Positions 3,013 to 11,519 of a stretch of 64,000 nt of DNA are shown piece by piece. This DNA comes from a virus, in the IMG/VR virus record IMGVR_UViG_3300027987_000382, positions 32,001 through 96,000 of that record. The stretch is one strand, 5' to 3'. The translations under genes and the position numbers were made by a program. Within the stretch, counting starts at the first letter, position 1, and the number at the start of each line of letters is the position of its first letter. Below the pieces are notes generated by a model, which saw nothing but the letters and a program-made list of their open reading frames with translations, was not told the origin of the DNA and ran no database searches.

Positions 3013-4740
3013 ATGCGACTCAGCGACATTGCCGAAATCATCATAGAGAACGTGGAGAAACTGCTCCCGTATCTTCGCGATGATGTCAAGCAATATTTGG
3101 CAAAGAGGAAAGAGGCTGGTGTACCAAACCCAACCGAATTTCCCACTCACCTGAACGAAAAATCGCTCAGCAAATGGATCGACATAGCCGTAGAATGGGC
3201 ATTGCGTGCCGATCCTCGCTACATACGTGAAATCAGAAAAGAAAAGCCTCTCAGCAGAATCAAAGCACCATTCGTCAAACAAATCCTCAAATGGTGGCTA
3301 GACCCAGCGGCTGGTGGCGGAATTGACCTACCAGAAGATATTGAAACGACGGCCGAAACGCTTAACCAATTCAATGTCGCCAAGCAACACGGGTTAAATG
3401 CGAACGCCGCCGATTTCACGCGTTGGGACGAGCTGGTTGCAGCTCTGCAACCGTTCCTCACAGAGCCAGAAGAAGCCGACAGCGACATCTACTCGCGAAT
3501 GGGCCTGGACCTCGTCTTCCACGAAGGACCATGGAAGATGTACACGGTCGACAAATGGATCCCTGGCGACCAATCGACCTTACATCCAGGTCAAGTGTGC
3601 CACAGAGCATTTGAAGGCACCCGCTGGTGCGTCAAGTATCAAAGCACATTCGAACGCACCTACAGCGGAGTCTACTACCTCGTTCTCTACAGAGGCAAGA
3701 GATTTGGGCTAATCAACTTCCCAAGCAAACAATTCAAGAATCCGCAAGACCAAGCAATCTCCAAAACAGAGCCAGAACTCGGACTCCAATTCTTGCAGTT
3801 GCTATTCAATAAGCGGCCCGACTTCCTGGCAGAATTGGCTCTAGCAATGCTCGATAGTCGATACTCGAGCTACAGTGACTTCGCCCCATTCATGGAGCAT
3901 TTCACGGCCGAGACAACGGAGATTCTGAACACACCAGAAGCGAGAGAAGGTGCACTTCGCGACCCGATGCAAGTAATCCAGCTGGCCAAATTCATCGGCG
4001 AATGGCCGCACTTTAGAGATTGGCCAGAGGGCTATCAAAAAATCGTGTCGACCGACTTCAGCACAAACACACGACGATCGCAGGCCATCCAAGAGCTTGT
4101 CGAAGCACGAGGCCGCGTCCCAGAAGTCGAAGCTAAAATCGATTCTGTAGAGGCATTCAAGCGATATTGCGTTTGGCTGACCAAGTCTAACATGAAGCCT
4201 GGTGCGGCGACCGATCTGATCGCAAAGGGTCGAGAGATCTCAGAAAACATCGCCAAAGACCCAACCAAAATCAGGGGAGCCATCAGCTGGCTAACCACAG
4301 AACGTGGACTCAGGGGCGGCGAGACTCCTCCACCATGGCCAAATATGGAACAGCAGATTCTGCGATCACAAGATCCACGAGCTGCTTTCGCTTATGCTAA
4401 ACTACTGGGCGAAGCTTGGCCAGAAGGCGAATCTCTCATCGCCTCTGATGACAGATCGGCAGAATCATACTTCAAGCTCACCGGCAAAGACGTTCGTGGC
4501 GGAAAACAGCTGGCAGAGCCGACTGACCCAGATGGCATCGTCAGAAGAGCAATTGCTCGCGGGAAAGAAATTCCTGCCGAGCAAGAAGACTTCATCCTAC
4601 AGGACCTCGATGCATCGATCGATTATGCCGAGCACCTGATCGGTCCGTGGCCAGAACTTGAGGACGAATTGCGTAAGAGAGGGACGTCGGCTCAGAAGAA
4701 AGAGTACTCGAGACGAGTCCTTTACGGCGAATTCCAGTGA
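3013..4740 (+). CDS. hypothetical protein with MRLSDIAE leader, candidate internal virion protein
   Basis: 575 aa; GTRWCV motif; C-terminal WPxxE helical repeats; upstream TAAAAATA. Confidence 0.6.
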   Translation: MRLSDIAEIIIENVEKLLPYLRDDVKQYLAKRKEAGVPNPTEFPTHLNEKSLSKWIDIAVEWALRADPRYIREIRKEKPLSRIKAPFVKQILKWWLDPAAGGGIDLPEDIETTAETLNQFNVAKQHGLNANAADFTRWDELVAALQPFLTEPEEADSDIYSRMGLDLVFHEGPWKMYTVDKWIPGDQSTLHPGQVCHRAFEGTRWCVKYQSTFERTYSGVYYLVLYRGKRFGLINFPSKQFKNPQDQAISKTEPELGLQFLQLLFNKRPDFLAELALAMLDSRYSSYSDFAPFMEHFTAETTEILNTPEAREGALRDPMQVIQLAKFIGEWPHFRDWPEGYQKIVSTDFSTNTRRSQAIQELVEARGRVPEVEAKIDSVEAFKRYCVWLTKSNMKPGAATDLIAKGREISENIAKDPTKIRGAISWLTTERGLRGGETPPPWPNMEQQILRSQDPRAAFAYAKLLGEAWPEGESLIASDDRSAESYFKLTGKDVRGGKQLAEPTDPDGIVRRAIARGKEIPAEQEDFILQDLDASIDYAEHLIGPWPELEDELRKRGTSAQKKEYSRRVLYGEFQ

Positions 4741-5543
4741 TCTGCGGATTGTTCTTCTAGATAAGCCGGAAGCTCTGCAAAGCTCATTGCCCTCGGAATT
4801 ACAGAGCGGCCATCTTGACCTCGCGATTTCCACAACGCCGTCGCCTCTCCGGCCTGTTGATCGAAAGTTAGTCCAAGCAGCTTGACAGCCGAATCGATGC
4901 CCAGATGCTGCGATCTAGCATTGATTGTCACGTTGATGCCTTCAATCAAGCTAGCAAGAATCCTGTCGAAAATGACTGGAGGTGCTCCAAGCTCAAACAA
5001 CATCGCGACTGGATTTCCCGCAAAGTCTCTGTAGCTCTTACCCCGGTAATCAAAGCGGTCAGGTTCTTCATTGAATTTCGCTTCTGATTCATGCCGCCAT
5101 TTGATGTCTTTGATGTTGGTCATGTAGGCTGTCATGATCACTTTGAAGCGGTTATTCCAAATGTACTCCTTATGGGCGTTGTAGCGACCAGTTTCTGGAT
5201 CTGGTTCGGCCCAGCCGGTTTCATCCTGACCGCATCTCTCGCAAGGAATGTATTCGCCAAGAGTGGTGAAGTCTCGCATTCTCCCGATCAGAGATGCTCG
5301 CTGTGCACCAATTCTTTGGTATCGTCCAGCCCAACGCGGATAGACACCGGGTGTAATCCCCATGATGAGAATTTGGGTCCCGGTTTTCGGATGATTGATG
5401 ATCCGGGCGTGGTCTGCTTCGATGACAACGCCACGCCTCGTAAGAATCGTGGCTGGACGCAAACGACCACGGTTGCGAGTCTCGCTGACAATTCGCAACC
5501 TTTTTAGCATTAGCGTGTTGTCGATTTTATCCGATAGGTTCAT
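4722..5543 (-). CDS. RT-locus paralog C (unknown function)
   Basis: Start re-assigned to MNLSDKI (5543). Shares PAxIxxxRGxxIxxxHxR, GxxPG, (L/M)RDF, EYxP and QDETGWxEP with the next two ORFs. Confidence 0.75.
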   Translation of the reverse strand: MNLSDKIDNTLMLKRLRIVSETRNRGRLRPATILTRRGVVIEADHARIINHPKTGTQILIMGITPGVYPRWAGRYQRIGAQRASLIGRMRDFTTLGEYIPCERCGQDETGWAEPDPETGRYNAHKEYIWNNRFKVIMTAYMTNIKDIKWRHESEAKFNEEPDRFDYRGKSYRDFAGNPVAMLFELGAPPVIFDRILASLIEGINVTINARSQHLGIDSAVKLLGLTFDQQAGEATALWKSRGQDGRSVIPRAMSFAELPAYLEEQSADHWNSP

Positions 5544-6201
5544 CTTCAAGCCTGTTGCCAGCCACGCGGCTTTTCCGCCACCAGTTCTTATTATCGTCGT
5601 ACGCTTTATATTCGTACTTGGACGGGTCGGTGCCGGGTTCCAGCAATTCAAGTGTTTTGACGTTCTCGCGATTCATCGTCAAGATTTTGCGGAACCGACG
5701 TGTGATCCTAAGTTCTCTGTCGGCACAATAATGGCCATATTCGTCTGGTTCAGACCAACCTGTTTCGTCTTGGTAGCCATGCTGCACAAGATAGCTGTCC
5801 GGATGGTATTCTCGCGAAAGATAGAAGTCTCTGAGCTTGAAGTACCATGAGTTTGGGAAATGGCCCTTGTAGACTCTTTGCCATCTGCCTGGGTCGATTC
5901 CAGCAATCACCCACATTGTACCGGTGAATGGGTTTCGCACCTCTCGCACGTGATGGACCGGGATTAGAGTGCCACGCTTCATGAGGATGATGGCGGGCTG
6001 CATTCGTCGAGATTCGAGTAGTGGGCCTAAACCGGCTTCACTGAGAGCCAGTCCAAGTTTGTCCTCGATTGACTCAGATTTCTTTTTCTTGACGCGTTCT
6101 GGAAGTTTCTTTCCCTTTGGCGTGTGCTTTTCCCACCGATCAGCCATTTCTGGATGATTAGCGTGCATCCAGCTTCGTTGAGCTTCGCTTTTGAATGGCA
6201 T
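5527..6201 (-). CDS. RT-locus paralog B with N-terminal PFKSEAQR module
   Basis: GGAG SD before ATG 6201; core PAIILMKRGT...LRDFY...QDETGWSEP. Confidence 0.8.
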   Translation of the reverse strand: MPFKSEAQRSWMHANHPEMADRWEKHTPKGKKLPERVKKKKSESIEDKLGLALSEAGLGPLLESRRMQPAIILMKRGTLIPVHHVREVRNPFTGTMWVIAGIDPGRWQRVYKGHFPNSWYFKLRDFYLSREYHPDSYLVQHGYQDETGWSEPDEYGHYCADRELRITRRFRKILTMNRENVKTLELLEPGTDPSKYEYKAYDDNKNWWRKSRVAGNRLEDEPIG

Positions 6202-6216
6202 TAAATGTCTCCAAAA

Positions 6217-6365
6217 GGAGCGGACCACGAGTGAAGGCCGGAGGCCGTAGTACGCTCAAAGCGTTAGCTTTGAGATGGCATTTGTCTCTATACCGTCAGC
6301 ATCCTTCCTCAAGGATTGGCACGACTAACAGCTTCGAGACGTCGAGGAAACCCATGGTCCGCTCC
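6217..6365 (-). ncRNA. structured RNA unit 1 (of 3)
   Basis: Terminal IR ggagcggacca (6217-6227)/tggtccgctcc (6355-6365); internal hairpins 6255-6274 and 6301-6316; core shared with units 2 and 3. Confidence 0.8.
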
Positions 6366-6367
6366 AA

Positions 6368-6521
6368 AAATGGTTGTCACCGGTGGCGGTCCGGAGACCA
6401 AACAAACGGAATATCCGTTAGGCTATTCCTTACATTCGCTCCTGTACCGCCCGCGTCCTTCCCCAAGGACGTACACGACCAAGCAGCTTCAGAGCATCAG
6501 GGAAACCGATTACAACCATTT
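6368..6521 (-). ncRNA. structured RNA unit 2 (of 3)
   Basis: Terminal IR 6368-6384/6505-6521; hairpins 6408-6429 and 6454-6471; C(UCCG)G hairpin on the minus strand near 6387-6399. Confidence 0.8.
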
Positions 6522-6968
6522 GATTCCTAATATGTTCTCCGGATTGATTGTCATGATCTTCTCAAACTTCATCTTCTTGATGTAGTACCGATGGGCCGAA
6601 TATCCGCCCGGCCCACGACCACCGCACGGTCTGCTGTTGTATGCTTCAACAGCATGCCATCCTTCAGGGGTCTCGCCACCAAGTGGCTCATCCCAACCAG
6701 TCTCATCTTGGTATGGGGCTGGGATGTACTCTCCTGGTGCATAGAAATCTCGCAGCCGCCTCACAAATGAACCGTTTTTCGAAAGCGAGGCCGACGCCAT
6801 TTCTGTCTCGTAAAGTCCCGGTTTGACTCCGACTACGAGATATGATCTCCCAGTTGGATATTGAACCATTCTCGCATGATCCGCTTTAATCACCGTCCCC
6901 CGCTTCATTGTAATTATAGCAGGGCGGTGAGTTCTCAGCCGAGCTTCTGCGATATGGTAAAGTTTCAT
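6510..6968 (-). CDS. RT-locus paralog A with MKLYHIAE leader
   Basis: Start re-assigned to ATG 6968; core PAIITMKRGTVIKADHAR...RLRDFY...QDETGWDEP. Confidence 0.8.
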   Translation of the reverse strand: MKLYHIAEARLRTHRPAIITMKRGTVIKADHARMVQYPTGRSYLVVGVKPGLYETEMASASLSKNGSFVRRLRDFYAPGEYIPAPYQDETGWDEPLGGETPEGWHAVEAYNSRPCGGRGPGGYSAHRYYIKKMKFEKIMTINPENILGIKWL

Positions 6969-6974
6969 AGGAAA

Positions 6975-7115
6975 ACCGCAGTTGCGAGTGAAGAACGTCA
7001 AACGCTCGCACCATTAGGTTCGAGATTGCATTCGCCTCTGTACCACCAGCATCCTTTCCCAAGGATGTGCACGTTCCGATAGCTTCAAGGCACCAGGAAA
7101 ACCCGCAACTGCGGT
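6975..7115 (-). ncRNA. structured RNA unit 3 (of 3)
   Basis: Perfect 12-bp terminal IR accgcagttgcg (6975-6986)/cgcaactgcggt (7104-7115); hairpins 7005-7024 and 7050-7067. Confidence 0.8.
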
Positions 7116-7129
7116 ATTGTATTTTTGCA
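7114..7129. promoter_or_regulatory. putative overlapping divergent promoter motifs
   Basis: Minus strand GCAAAAATA 4 nt before RNA unit 3; plus strand TGTATT ~10 nt before RT ATG 7132; both motifs recur in other intergenic regions. Confidence 0.35.
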
Positions 7130-7131
7130 AC

Positions 7132-8511
7132 ATGATCTCAATCGACGACTGCAAACAAGCATACTCGCTCCAGAACGCCGCTTTAGTTATCGCGAACAAA
7201 GTGGCATTCGACAAAGGCAAGGGATTCGCCAGGTCCTGGGAGCCGCCAATCTCGACGCCAGACTACCCAGACTCGAACGTCACCTCACCAACTACCAATT
7301 TAGCCCAACGGCTAAACAGATAAAGTACGTCAAGTGGAAAGAGAGAATTCTATACATATCCACCTGGGAAGACAAAATTGTCGAAACATGGCTCAGCCGA
7401 TCTCTCAATAAATTATTATCCAGCTGGTTCTCAAAACGATCATACGCCTATCGCCTCGAGAAAATCGGAGTCGACACTTGCCAACGCGACGTCATCGACG
7501 TCATCAAATCAAGTCGCTTCATCGCCAGACGCGATATCCGCAATTTCTTCTACACGATTGACCACGAGCTGCTCCTAGACAAGCTCTCTGCAATCCTAGA
7601 TCCGCCACTCCTCGACTTGGTCAGACAGCGAGTCCAATTCGAGTATTATGAGAACGGAGAAATAAAGGAATGCGAGCTGGGTGTACCGTTCGGATCACCG
7701 ATCGCTTGTTTGCTAGCAAACATTTACCTCACAGCGACAGACCACAAACTGGCAGCACAGAATGCTCACTACTTCAGGTACGCAGATGACTTCCTCATTG
7801 CATCAGATTCGGCCGGTCCAGTTTTAGACAGCGTAGAATTACTGCGAGATGAGGTTGAATATCTGCGTCTCGAGTTGCATCCAGACAAAGGTGTGAATTT
7901 GTCGTTTGAAGACCACCCGAACTTCGACATCACCAACAGATTCAAGTATCTCGGCTTAGAATATTGGCACGACGGCGTTGTTCGCCTCCCCATCGAGAAG
8001 AAACGAAAGATCGCGGGCATTTTCAGGCGAGCACTTCGCAGTCAGAAAAAGAGATTGCTGAAGATTGAAGACCTGACTGAGCGGACTAAAGCGGCAGTCG
8101 CCTGTGTCGCAGAAGCGGCATTGAAAAGAATCAGGTACGCCGCCATCATCGACTACTATCTCAAGCATGTAGAGGACGAAGAACAACTCAAGGTCCTCGA
8201 CCGCGAAATTGCCGAGATGGTGATCAGCACAGTCCTTGACAAGCCGTTCAAAGCACGCGACTTCAAAAAGATTCCGTACGGAACACGATTACGGACTTGT
8301 CTCATTGCTGCACAGAAGCAGGTTGCATAGGCACGGGCAGTTGAACGTGCCGTTCCTCTCCATGTACAACAGCATTCTCTTCGAACGATTCGAAGAAGGC
8401 AAACGACGGCGTTCTGAGCGTATCAGCCAGATTCGGCTGGCTCGGAAGCTGAAGAAGATTCGAGCAGACGACCAGCATAATCATCCGCAAGAGCAGCAAG
8501 GTGCGGATTAG
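7132..8511 (+). CDS. reverse transcriptase (group II-like, YADD), apparently frameshifted near 7240 and 8286
   Basis: Core ORF 7125..8330: EDKIVE, SYAYR, DIRNFFYTIDH, GVPFGSPIACLLANIYL, YFRYADD, FKYLG, thumb-like region. Plausible N-terminus (ATG 7132) and C-terminus (to 8511) lie in other frames. Confidence 0.9.
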
Positions 8512-8662
8512 AGAATACCGGCCTCTTGCTATCGCATTCATCGACCTCCATGATCTTCTTGCAGACGACGCCGGTCGGCACCTCATCCCTCATCATCAGA
8601 TAGAGGAATTCCTGCAGCCTTTCTCTGACGCTCACGCCAGTCTCTTGGGAGGAGCTTGACAA
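8423..8662 (-). CDS. small hypothetical protein
   Basis: Protein-like LQEFLYLMMRDEVPTG...FSNPHLAALA; overlaps the dnaE tail and the RT tail; start uncertain. Confidence 0.45.
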   Translation of the reverse strand: MSSSSQETGVSVRERLQEFLYLMMRDEVPTGVVCKKIMEVDECDSKRPVFSNPHLAALADDYAGRLLESSSASEPAESG

Positions 8663-11519
8663 TGATCTGATTCCTTTTCAAAGTGAATGTTCCACGCATG
8701 TCGTCATAGTCAACACATGCCTGGATGCCCGTCCCAACAAGTAGAGTGCTCGCATCTTGCAGTGCCAGTTCATTGCTGAAAAGCAATAGCAAAGCGGTCT
8801 GGACGCCATCGCTGACGATCAGCCTCGCATATTCTTTCTTTGTCTTGGTCTCGGCGAATTGTAGCTCCGTGATCACCACTTCTAGCTTCGGATCACCGCC
8901 ATTCGCGGCGACCTCTTTCGCTTCTTCGATAGTGCAATCACCTTCGATGTCATAGACGTCCAACGGTGAATGCAGATAGTACCCAAGGTACTGTTTCTCG
9001 AACTCGAGCTTCTGCTCGAGGCTGAACGATTCATGGTCGAACAAAGCCATCACCCTCTCACGGGTGTCATCAGGCTTTGGTGTCCAATTCTGAATCTTAT
9101 TCGGGATCTTGCGACGATTGGGGAACTGAGCCTTGTACTCGGCAGTCTGTCGCTTACGTTCCTCTTCGATCGTCTCATCGTTCCAATCGTCCTGGTCAAG
9201 CAGCTTCTGCCGAACCTCTTGGCGGATCTGTGTGATGTCCTTCCCGCTGCAATACTTGTACTGGTACCACATCCAAGTGGCATAGCTATTCTCATGTCCC
9301 GGCACCGAAGAAAAGGCACCAAGCTTGATGAACCGCTCCATCACAGTCTTGCTCTTAGCACCCTTCTTTTCGATGAACTCGTCGATGTCTGTGAATGATC
9401 CGCGACCAACAAACTTATCAGCTGCCGCTTCACCGATCCCTTTGATGCCGATCATCCCCTGGTTGACTTTGTCACCAGTCGCCGTGAAGTTCGTCGTCAA
9501 GTTCGTGATGTTGATTGTGTCGAACACGACTCCCTTAGCCCGTTCTTCTGGTCTGAAAGTTCCACAGTATGTGATGTCTGTCGGTTCCCATTTCTCGGCT
9601 CTAGCGATGCCCATGTAACGGACGAGCTTGTCTGGATGGCAGTCGCTCATCACCGCTGCCCACCACTCTGGTGCGAAGTGAGCCTTCAACCACAAGCATC
9701 TCAGAGCCACCAGACAATAAGACACAGCATGTGACCGGTTGAATGCGTAGCGTCCGAACGTCTCCATCTTCGGCCACCACTCGGCCGCCTCTTTGTCGCC
9801 GATAACACGGGACGCACCAATCAGCCATTGCTCTCTGATCGGTTTCAGTTTGTGTGTCCACTTCTTGGCAACAGCTTTTCTAGCTTCTTGTGCCTGCGGA
9901 GCCGTGAAACCAGCGATCAGCTGCCAAATTGCCTGGAGCTGCTCCTGATAGACGATCACGCCGTACGTCGACTCCAGAACCCGAAGGATGTCTGGGTGCA
10001 GCCGCTTCTTCCAGCTGGCGGTTGGATCATCGCGGTTCTCAACAGCCTCTGGGATCGACGCCATCGGACCAGGGTGCCCCATGGCGTTGAAAAGCATCAA
10101 GTCTTCGAAATTCCTAACGCCATTCGCCAGAATACTCTTGGCCAGATCGGTGTCGAACTGGAACACCCCATCAGTCTTTTGCTCGTTTGCGAGCCTGAGT
10201 GCATGCACGTCATTGAGTTCAATGAACCGTTTCTTCCTATCGGCATCGTAGAAATGCCCGGCCCTATTTTGTGTCGGATCGATGTCGTCCCAACCGCTCA
10301 TAATTGGCGGCAAGTCTTGGCCGTGCTGTGATTGTTCTGCCCTTGGCTTGCCAAACGAGATGCCGCGATTCTGTTCAATGAGTCTGCAGCACTCGAAAAT
10401 ATACTTGAGCGTCTTGAGTCCCAGGATATCCCACTTGATGTAGCCGAACTTGGAGAGCTGCGTGTTGCGGCCTTCGGACCACATGCTCACCCAGTAACCC
10501 TTGCTTCCACTTTTGGCTAACGGGATGTTGCCGAACAGGGTGCGATCGGCGATAATCAGAGCCCCAGCGTGCATACCCATGTTACGCACACGGCCGATGA
10601 TCTGCACGGCGTAGCTGACTTCTTGCGGATATTTCCTAGCGAAGGCACGAAGCTGTTCGTGTTCCTTTAATAATTTGCCAATTGTAGGGCTGTCGGTAGC
10701 AGTACCGCCGCTACTATCCTTCTTCTGTTGCTTCGATCCGCCATGATGTTGTTTATCCTCGTAATCTCCTTCGCCGCCGCCGGGCGGCTGCCGCTGAAGT
10801 GCCAGATATTTCTCTGTTGGAGAGCATTTTGGACAACTCCAATTGGTGTGTACGTGGCCGCACTCTTTCTCTTCGCCTGTTTGTGCGTCCTTGATCCGCT
10901 CTTTGCAGGCCGCAGCTCCGCCGTCCTTCAATTCGTCGACGTCGTCCGGCAGACTTGTCGTTAGTTCGTAAACCTCGGCACGTCGCCGCTTCTTGTCCTC
11001 TTCATCGGCGGCCGTCGCTTGCATCGTGTCAATCAGAGCAGAACGGAACTTGTAAGTCTGCCAAGTACCGACTGAGCACACGGGGCCGTAGCCGTCCGTA
11101 ATGTTCATGCCGTATTTCTTGGCGGCATATTCCTTGATCGGATCACGAGCCTCTGGCAAACAGTCGAGGTCGATGTCTGGCATGTCCGGGTCTTTGACGA
11201 AGTCGCACGGCACGTGGCCTTTGTCGGCCTTGTACTTCATGACTTCGGACGCTCGGACTGTACAGAGCATCTCGTCTTTGCGGTTGGCGATTGGGTCGCC
11301 TTCGACCATCCCTAGCAGCCACGGCAGAACCAAGCAGCCTGGGTTTTTGTCGAATTTCTTGCCGTCGTTGTAGAGATTGATCCAGTAGGTTGTGGCACCT
11401 TGTTTCTCAATCTCTCGTTGCTCGAATGTCAAGCGGTTTTGATAGGTGCCATTCAAGCCACGCTGGTCAAGCTCCTCGTGAGCGAGGGTTTTCAGCTCTT
11501 CCCAAGTGACTTCAGCCAT
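8583..11519 (-). CDS. dnaE: DNA polymerase III alpha, C-terminal (catalytic) part
   Basis: MPDIDLD palm, HAGALII, KWDILGL, GVFQF, VYQEQ, YAFNRSHA, GIKGIG HhH, LEFEKQYLGYY, OB fold. Confidence 0.92.
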   Translation of the reverse strand: MAEVTWEELKTLAHEELDQRGLNGTYQNRLTFEQREIEKQGATTYWINLYNDGKKFDKNPGCLVLPWLLGMVEGDPIANRKDEMLCTVRASEVMKYKADKGHVPCDFVKDPDMPDIDLDCLPEARDPIKEYAAKKYGMNITDGYGPVCSVGTWQTYKFRSALIDTMQATAADEEDKKRRRAEVYELTTSLPDDVDELKDGGAAACKERIKDAQTGEEKECGHVHTNWSCPKCSPTEKYLALQRQPPGGGEGDYEDKQHHGGSKQQKKDSSGGTATDSPTIGKLLKEHEQLRAFARKYPQEVSYAVQIIGRVRNMGMHAGALIIADRTLFGNIPLAKSGSKGYWVSMWSEGRNTQLSKFGYIKWDILGLKTLKYIFECCRLIEQNRGISFGKPRAEQSQHGQDLPPIMSGWDDIDPTQNRAGHFYDADRKKRFIELNDVHALRLANEQKTDGVFQFDTDLAKSILANGVRNFEDLMLFNAMGHPGPMASIPEAVENRDDPTASWKKRLHPDILRVLESTYGVIVYQEQLQAIWQLIAGFTAPQAQEARKAVAKKWTHKLKPIREQWLIGASRVIGDKEAAEWWPKMETFGRYAFNRSHAVSYCLVALRCLWLKAHFAPEWWAAVMSDCHPDKLVRYMGIARAEKWEPTDITYCGTFRPEERAKGVVFDTINITNLTTNFTATGDKVNQGMIGIKGIGEAAADKFVGRGSFTDIDEFIEKKGAKSKTVMERFIKLGAFSSVPGHENSYATWMWYQYKYCSGKDITQIRQEVRQKLLDQDDWNDETIEEERKRQTAEYKAQFPNRRKIPNKIQNWTPKPDDTRERVMALFDHESFSLEQKLEFEKQYLGYYLHSPLDVYDIEGDCTIEEAKEVAANGGDPKLEVVITELQFAETKTKKEYARLIVSDGVQTALLLLFSNELALQDASTLLVGTGIQACVDYDDMRGTFTLKRNQIIVKLLPRDWRERQRKAAGIPLSDDEG

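Follow-up and report, generated by a model that had tools for sequence, protein, structure and literature searches.

A structured non-coding RNA (ncRNA) of about 145 nt, carried in three diverged copies by a phage genome fragment, is linked near-obligately and specifically to one family of reverse transcriptases (RTs), and the linkage is kept across three different gene orders. The fold of this RNA is conserved and covaries among its homologues. On balance, we think it probable that each of the three units is a separate folded ncRNA of about 145 nt that acts as the cognate, and probably templating, partner of the adjacent RT. The stretch of DNA analysed here (the window) comprises 64,000 nt and forms part of a 146.8-kb IMG/VR virus record (IMGVR_UViG_3300027987_000382); because that record is estimated to be only 41% complete, its source is taken to be a huge phage. 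Related loci were drawn from viral contigs of 125–364 kb. The initial annotation of the window described the RNA and did not mention that it belongs with the adjacent RT, an association that the comparative data support; since these data show linkage to the RT, a partnership with it is favoured here over a riboswitch or ribozyme function.

All three units lie on the minus strand, and every element listed by the initial annotation, which had reported three copies of a motif of about 145 nt, is present at its position. Unit 1 spans 6975–7115 (core 7103–7002), unit 2 spans 6368–6521 (core 6507–6406) and unit 3 spans 6217–6365 (core 6352–6252). A covariance model built from the three window cores (R1) scores them at 113.6, 114.3 and 111.5 bits, respectively. 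The same copies emerge from a repeat search as three 72-nt repeats starting at window positions 6252, 6406 and 7002, and from a gapped pattern of 21 bases that has exactly three sites in the 64 kb, with 0 expected from 100 shuffles. The 102-nt cores align with a single 1-nt gap at a mean identity of 83%, and no further copy beyond the three units was found across the whole 146.8-kb record.

The architecture of the RNA consists of a long closing stem (P1) around a junction, from which a coaxial arm extends through P2, a conserved 3×3 internal loop, P3 and P4. As had been proposed, P1 is unit-specific in sequence and is followed in each unit by a run of U (UUUU or UUUUU). It comprises 15 bp in unit 1 (7115–7101 with 6989–6975, with the U-run at 6974–6971), 10 bp in unit 2 (6521–6512 with 6377–6368, and longer with inner pairs across an internal loop) and 16 bp in unit 3. 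Single-sequence folds recover P1–P5 in all three units, in agreement with RNAalifold on the homologues, and the P2–P5 fold drawn from the three copies stands. In these folds, the 5 bp of P2 lead into a GAA/ANA internal loop and then into an 8-bp, G-U-rich P3, which a linker of about 8 nt separates from P4; the folding Z-scores of the three units are −5.9, −1.0 and −4.9. The GAA after P2 had been called invariant, which is true of the window units and becomes (G/A)AA in some relatives. The GGUUU segment reported on the 5′ side is likewise present, although part of it forms the inner end of P1. Hairpin P5 has a conserved C-UAAY-G loop, and its stem continues into an AUG:CGU helix; a further hairpin on the periphery, P6, adjoins a conserved YCA motif.

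The loop of P4 is complementary to a pyrimidine tract that follows P1, which gives a pseudoknot of 6–8 bp per unit. The segments pair as the initial annotation had claimed, and the pairing is longer than it noted: on a generous count, it amounts to 8 bp in unit 1 (7100–7093 with 7062–7055; UUUCCUGG:UUGGGAAA), in unit 2 (6504–6497 with 6466–6459; UUCCCUGA:UUGGGGAA) and in unit 3 (6349–6342 with 6312–6305; UUCCUCGA:UUGAGGAA). At this length, the pseudoknot competes with the two innermost U-A pairs of the 6-bp P4.

The compensatory base changes seen between the three copies extend to strong covariation in homologues. The covariation set consists of 55 hits aligned to the model; such an alignment is fitted to the model, so plain MAFFT alignments with flanks were also tested. 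Across the 55 sequences, 94.5% of cells are standard pairs, compared with 67% after shuffling and 32–42% when the partner is slid, and 27 of the 30 pairs vary on both sides. P3 opens with two pairs, G-U and C-G, that are invariant in this set. The first is G-U in 55/55 homologues and would become C-A on the opposite strand; this invariant pair, together with many other G-U pairs, fixes the transcribed strand as the minus-strand reading previously assigned. On plain MAFFT alignments, RNAalifold recovers P1, P2, P3, P4 and P5 in 18 phage-clade units, and a 19-bp P1, an extra hairpin and P2–P5 in 16 bacterial sequences. With brackets for the pseudoknot included, the MAFFT alignment has 89% of its cells paired, compared with 71% after shuffling; the pseudoknot helix itself is 85% paired, with CG/UA exchanges at three positions. 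Covarying pairs across the clades include UUCCUC/GAGGAA, UCUCUC/GAGAGA, AUCCCU/GGGGAU, ACUCCC/GGGAGU, UCUCUA/UAGAGA and UUUCCC/GGGAAA, and the mean complementarity of a tract to its own loop (6.9 bp) exceeds that in all 2000 permutations of the loops among pseudoknot types (6.07 ± 0.14).

Searches of Rfam 15 are in keeping with the view that the RNA is no known riboswitch or ribozyme class: the window yields no match at gathering-score level, positions 5900–7500 yield none even at E ≤ 10, and eight related loci yield none at E ≤ 1. The compactness of the fold, its pseudoknot and the invariance of several unpaired nucleotides would suit a self-cleaving ribozyme, or another autonomous catalytic RNA, that happens to be repeated here by chance. 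This is very improbable: no Rfam ribozyme family matches even at E ≤ 10, no conserved cleavage-site context is seen, and strict linkage to a single RT lineage would not be expected of an autonomous ribozyme. The Rfam searches also returned no intron match (for example to domains V and VI) in the window or related loci, and a group II intron was rejected as an explanation of the repeats. A diversity-generating retroelement was rejected as well, given that the differences between copies involve all four bases and include compensatory changes within helices, and that all three copies are intergenic. A tRNA/tmRNA scan found none.

The linkage to the RT becomes apparent when relatives of the RT are collected. 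Locus searches with single sequences (the RT or the adjacent paralogue A, described below) gave no match, nor did an exact-pattern scan of viral contigs with the window motif; a profile of RT homologues was needed. Model R1 finds two copies of the RNA in L007 and three in L008, the closest relatives of the window, in the same divergent position and at 71–95 bits; with copies in five more huge-phage contigs (L009–L013), the RNA is present in all 7 huge-phage relatives. It also finds copies in many of 80 metagenome loci, which were retrieved with an RT profile. A second model (R2), built from the 55 hits, has 89 matches and detects the RNA in 79 of the 88 family loci from huge phages and metagenomes. 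Among loci of named bacterial genomes, the RNA accompanies the RT in 74 of 80, always as a single copy that shares the strand of the RT and sits at the 3′ end of its gene; the hosts are mostly Acidobacteriota/Terriglobia, with Verrucomicrobiota, Planctomycetota, Elusimicrobia and others also represented. Around unrelated RTs, R2 matches nothing at E ≤ 1 in 75 loci (about 560 kb). Nine of the 88 family loci have no R2 match. Four of them (L105, L122, L131 and L137) are cut by contig ends on the relevant side; the other five (L094, L095, L096, L098 and L099) have RT homologues at 40–46% identity and enough flanking sequence, and may carry a diverged RNA or none.

Three arrangements of RNA and RT can be distinguished. 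In huge phages, the RNA is divergent from the RT and upstream of it, in 1–4 copies per locus; L012 and L091–L093 have it immediately upstream of the RT, both on one strand; and in bacteria, the RNA and the 3′ end of the RT gene overlap. Each of the window RNAs has a recognisable orthologue in L008, which indicates that the RNA paralogues are old and individually maintained.

The proteins encoded beside the RNA differ between phages and bacteria. In the window, they form a family named here after its QDETGW motif, whose members share the core motifs MKRGTVI, DHAR, RDFY and QDETGW, differ in their N- and C-terminal extensions and are 43–47% identical to one another. All three paralogues are encoded on the minus strand: paralogue A (132 aa; 6510–6908) lies between units 1 and 2, and its stop codon falls within the 5′ arm of unit 2 P1; paralogue B (224 aa; 5527–6201) directly follows unit 3, with its ribosome-binding site and ATG immediately past the RNA; and paralogue C (up to 309 aa, its start codon being uncertain) occupies 4722–5651. 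In the phage clade, one to three QDETGW paralogues are interspersed among the RNAs, although not in a one-to-one ratio: there are three RNAs and three proteins in the window and in L008, and two and three in L007. The family matches no Pfam, PADLOC or NCBIfam family and has no usable Atlas match; its AlphaFold model (pLDDT 69.5) has no Foldseek match at E ≤ 0.001 and no VIA-align match above Z 2.8.

In the bacterial cassette, the RT is followed by the RNA, which overlaps the end of the RT ORF, and then by a protein of about 173 aa, with an N-terminal zinc ribbon and a small beta-barrel, whose ORF starts just after the RNA. This ORF is found in 48 of 51 full-length bacterial loci, and the other neighbours vary. 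The model of the zinc-ribbon protein (pLDDT 82) has weak matches to small beta-barrels (SH3, Tudor and PafBC; E ~0.05). A profile comparison of the two partner families gives a probability of 0.2, with a short HxxxxxxP-TG stretch alone aligning, and a common origin is not demonstrable from their sequences. The phage form is set apart by its divergence from the RT, its 1–4 RNA copies per locus and a different family of protein paralogues.

The position of the RNA relative to these genes also bears on whether it acts in cis. As a leader or attenuator, the RNA would sense a ligand or protein, P1 and the U-run would terminate transcription before the partner gene, and the link to the RT would reflect operon context. 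Such a role would account for units 1 and 3 lying immediately 5′ of paralogues A and B, for the zinc-ribbon ORF that begins just after nearly all full-length bacterial RNAs, and for the terminator-like combination of P1 and U-run in most phage-clade units. It is nevertheless quite unlikely. Units 2 and 3 stand in tandem without an intervening ORF; L090 has four tandem RNA units upstream of the RT, with its QDETGW genes on the other side of the RT; in L012 and L091–L093, the gene that follows the RNA is the RT itself, with no partner ORF detected; the U-run after P1 is absent from bacterial copies; and the partner family switches between clades, while RNA and RT remain together. Because the position of the RNA varies and its adjacency to the RT is kept, a trans-acting partner fits better than a cis element; that RNA and RT stay together across three gene orders, in phages as well as in six or more bacterial phyla, even as the partner protein is exchanged, is what would be expected of an RNA that acts in trans and is specific to the RT.

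An AT-rich box (AAAAATACAAT; 7116–7131, minus strand) immediately precedes the 5′ arm of unit 1 P1, inside or next to the RT start. It has been conserved in L008, and L007, L009, L010 and L090 have similar −10-like boxes ahead of their first units. The box may be a promoter for the RNA; since a scan of positions 5400–7500 for sigma-70 promoters and terminators did no better than shuffles, it is recorded as an observation and nothing more.

The peripheral parts of the RNA differ between clades around a common core. In phage-clade units, P5 is separated from the 3′ arm of P1 by the variable hairpin P6 and, after it, YCCAC or CCAAAC; in unit 2, P6 is followed by GCCAC and the U-run, and in unit 3 by UUCAC and the U-run at 6216–6213. 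P6 is missing from unit 1 and from its orthologue in L008. The intermediate and bacterial clades have a comparable hairpin, with UGCCAG before it, between the 5′ arm of P1 and the pseudoknot strand, and their linker between P5 and P1 is short and U-rich, with YCA at its end. A hairpin with a CCA-containing motif is therefore located on the 5′ side in L093, L012, L013, L091, L092 and the bacterial loci, and on the 3′ side in the phage forms (window units 2 and 3), which looks like a natural permutation of one peripheral element around a single junction. One bacterial subclade (L157, L146, L123, L128, L140, L135, L114, L112 and many loci of Acidobacteriota genomes) has an extra hairpin of 12 nt just before P4, and its core matches span 120 nt with a lower R2 score. 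The full-length bacterial form is about 190 nt long, and the phage form about 145 nt.

The RT gene (7132–8511, plus strand; RVT_1 E 2e-22) is arranged head to head with unit 1, and its ATG lies 16 nt from the 5′ end of unit 1 P1. Intact homologues encode 458–459 aa (~460 aa), and by comparison the window RT falls into three pieces: 7132–7242, 7242–8282 in another frame, and from 8287 in the first frame again. Residues 1–37 are thus in one frame, the core is in another and the C-terminal ~60 residues return to the first; all three pieces are 70–76% identical to intact homologues. The frame changes, at ~7242 and ~8285, may be assembly indels, recent decay or recoding, and given both of them the local system may be inactive.

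Profile comparisons relate the RT to several groups already named and do not assign it to one of them. The PADLOC models for UG26, UG17, UG4 and generic RTs score 80–140 bits against six family members. UG26 is the best or near-best PADLOC group model for most members, at 91–126 bits over ~330 profile positions; UG17 scores 86–115 bits, similar to UG26, UG4 and the generic RT model and with no curated cut-off in PADLOC; and Drt9 scores 84–106 bits. The affinity of the family to these enzymes is read from UG26 and UG17 scores of 103–125 bits, together with those of Drt9. Membership of UG27 was rejected, since RT_UG27 reaches 38.4 bits (E 1.7e-10), far below the other groups, as were Drt2 and Drt3a, with scores far below their cut-offs. 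The family is not a group II intron maturase at the equivalog level (TIGR04416, 139 bits against a cut-off of 300), nor is it part of the retron clade (NF038233, 48.7 bits against a cut-off of 235). In a profile search of the PDB, group II intron RTs (7uim and 5hhl) match best, in the fingers and palm, with retron RTs far below them; the longest alignment, which includes the thumb region, is to chain 9ioa ('RNA-dependent DNA polymerase'). [quoted passage not shown]

The affinity of fingers and palm to group II intron RTs raises the possibility that the RNA binds the RT without a role as template, serving as scaffold or chaperone, as a site of autoregulation much like the domain IVa site to which group II intron RTs bind, or as the remnant of a lost intron. 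The core is almost wholly base-paired, with little free single strand, and in bacteria it overlaps the RT's own 3′ end, both of which would suit such a role. We regard it as unlikely: there are no group II intron RNA domains and no Rfam match, the multiple diverged and separately conserved copies per phage are hard to square with autoregulation, and the characterised systems DRT2, DRT9 and DRT10 all use their RNA as template.

It is this last group of systems that makes a templating ncRNA the likeliest function. In class 2 DRTs, the ncRNA serves as a template, according to PMC13174585, and in the characterised systems DRT2, DRT9 and DRT10 the RNA is described as both scaffold and template (PMC13174585; bioRxiv 10.1101/2025.10.16.682844; 10.64898/2026.04.29.721553). 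DRT10 consists of a UG17 RT, an ncRNA and a SLATT protein, and its ncRNA, of 137–143 nt, depends on a basal stem for its stability (bioRxiv 10.1101/2025.10.16.682844; 10.64898/2026.04.29.721553). The RNA described here is similar in size and likewise has a basal stem. The two systems share a stand-alone RT, a separate structured ncRNA of ~140 nt closed by that stem and a small partner protein, and the PADLOC UG17 model is among the best matches to the window RT family. They differ in several respects. There is no SLATT(-5) partner here, the neighbouring phage ORFs having no Pfam or PADLOC family and the bacterial partner being the zinc-ribbon/beta-barrel protein; the RNA has a pseudoknot and a P2-P3-P4 arm, whereas that of DRT10 has a central stem with four or five stem-loops; it does not precede an effector-RT operon but takes a downstream, an upstream or a divergent position relative to the RT; and the phage form has 1–4 copies per locus.

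By analogy with DRT2, DRT9 and DRT10, the RT would bind the RNA and reverse-transcribe a short single-stranded segment of it. The best candidate for the copied segment, as a guess from its position, would be the linker between P5 and the 3′ arm of P1, which is U-rich in the bacterial clade and interrupted by P6 in the phage clade. P1 and the U-run would set the 3′ end and give the RNA stability, a part played in the DRT10 ncRNA by its basal stem, and the cDNA would act together with the small partner protein, namely the QDETGW paralogues in phages and the zinc-ribbon/small beta-barrel protein in bacteria. The three paralogous RNAs of the window could then provide one RT with three distinct ribonucleoproteins (RNPs) or products. 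Repeats seen by eye in the segment between P3 and P4 (J3/4) and in the P5-P1 linker are short and compatible with chance, and no conserved template-like repeat of the A-B-A′ (DRT10) or poly-U (DRT9) kind was identified with confidence. DRT9, which combines a UG28 RT with an ncRNA, resembles the present system as a class 2 RT with a highly conserved ncRNA; that ncRNA lies upstream of its RT and is reported to have a universally conserved poly-U template, whereas here a U-rich linker occurs in the bacterial clade only.

Retrons offer a further comparison, in which P1 would correspond to the a1/a2 repeats, synthesis would be primed from the 2′-OH of a conserved G located where P1 ends on its inner side, and P5/P6 would be copied into branched multicopy ssDNA in the manner of msr/msd. 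Several features are shared: the ncRNA is closed by flanking inverted repeats (P1, which measures 10–19 bp, covaries and is unit-specific in sequence in all clades), the order of msr and then msd is matched by a structured 5′ half and a 3′ half with hairpins, P1 of phage-clade units has a conserved GGGU:ACCC as its inner end, and the RT has a small effector-like gene adjacent to it. A retron-like mechanism is rather improbable even so, because the RT falls outside the retron clade on the model score and PDB search given above, the position and strand of the ncRNA are variable and not consistently upstream of the RT on the same strand, and the loop and stem of P5 are conserved in the manner of a recognition element, not a free template. 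A templating ncRNA of the DRT kind remains the preferred reading.

Two further groups bear comparison. UG27 is a gut-phage RT with a conserved non-coding RNA region and two uncharacterised partner proteins (Mestre et al. 2022, PMC9226505); as here, it is a phage-borne RT of the UG/Abi world with a conserved ncRNA, and it differs in its partner proteins, in its RNA fold, in the low score of its RT model against the present family and in its hosts, which are crAss-like/gut phages and not, as here, huge phages from environmental samples. UG26, a class 2 UG/Abi group, is covered over nearly the full length of its profile, although at the scores obtained the present RT is a distant relative and not a member; Mestre et al. 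2022 (PMC9226505) report no ncRNA for UG26, and the YcjD-like partner mentioned for it is not seen here.

RT-ncRNA systems are a known kind; what is new are the fold of the RNA, the multi-copy phage form and the partners with the QDETGW motif. Literature searches that covered few subscription journals turned up no account of this family of RT and RNA. More tentatively, the whole may be seen as an undescribed RT-ncRNA system with a fold of its own, widespread in Acidobacteriota, Verrucomicrobiota, Planctomycetota and other bacteria, which could have been captured by huge phages, its RNA multiplied to 1–4 diverged but conserved copies and paired with a new protein family, such that one RT might generate several cDNAs or RNPs for counter-defence or host take-over.

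Among RT-ncRNA systems, retrons, DRT2, DRT9 and DRT10 each revealed an unexpected route of making DNA, including the synthesis of genes, of homopolymers and of telomerase-like repeats, and several have become tools. The RNA described here is common in poorly studied soil phyla; the presence of several diverged RNAs per RT in huge phages amounts to a natural experiment on where in the RNA its specificity resides; and with ~240 covarying sequences now in hand, the fold is directly testable.

Two neighbouring genes are recorded as separate observations. By the RT, positions 8583–11519 (minus strand) encode a 978-aa ORF with DNA polymerase III alpha finger, NTPase and HhH domains, which is short for DnaE. 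In the phage contig L007, a CsrA-family gene (7288–7476, minus strand) is located 350 nt downstream of the RT.
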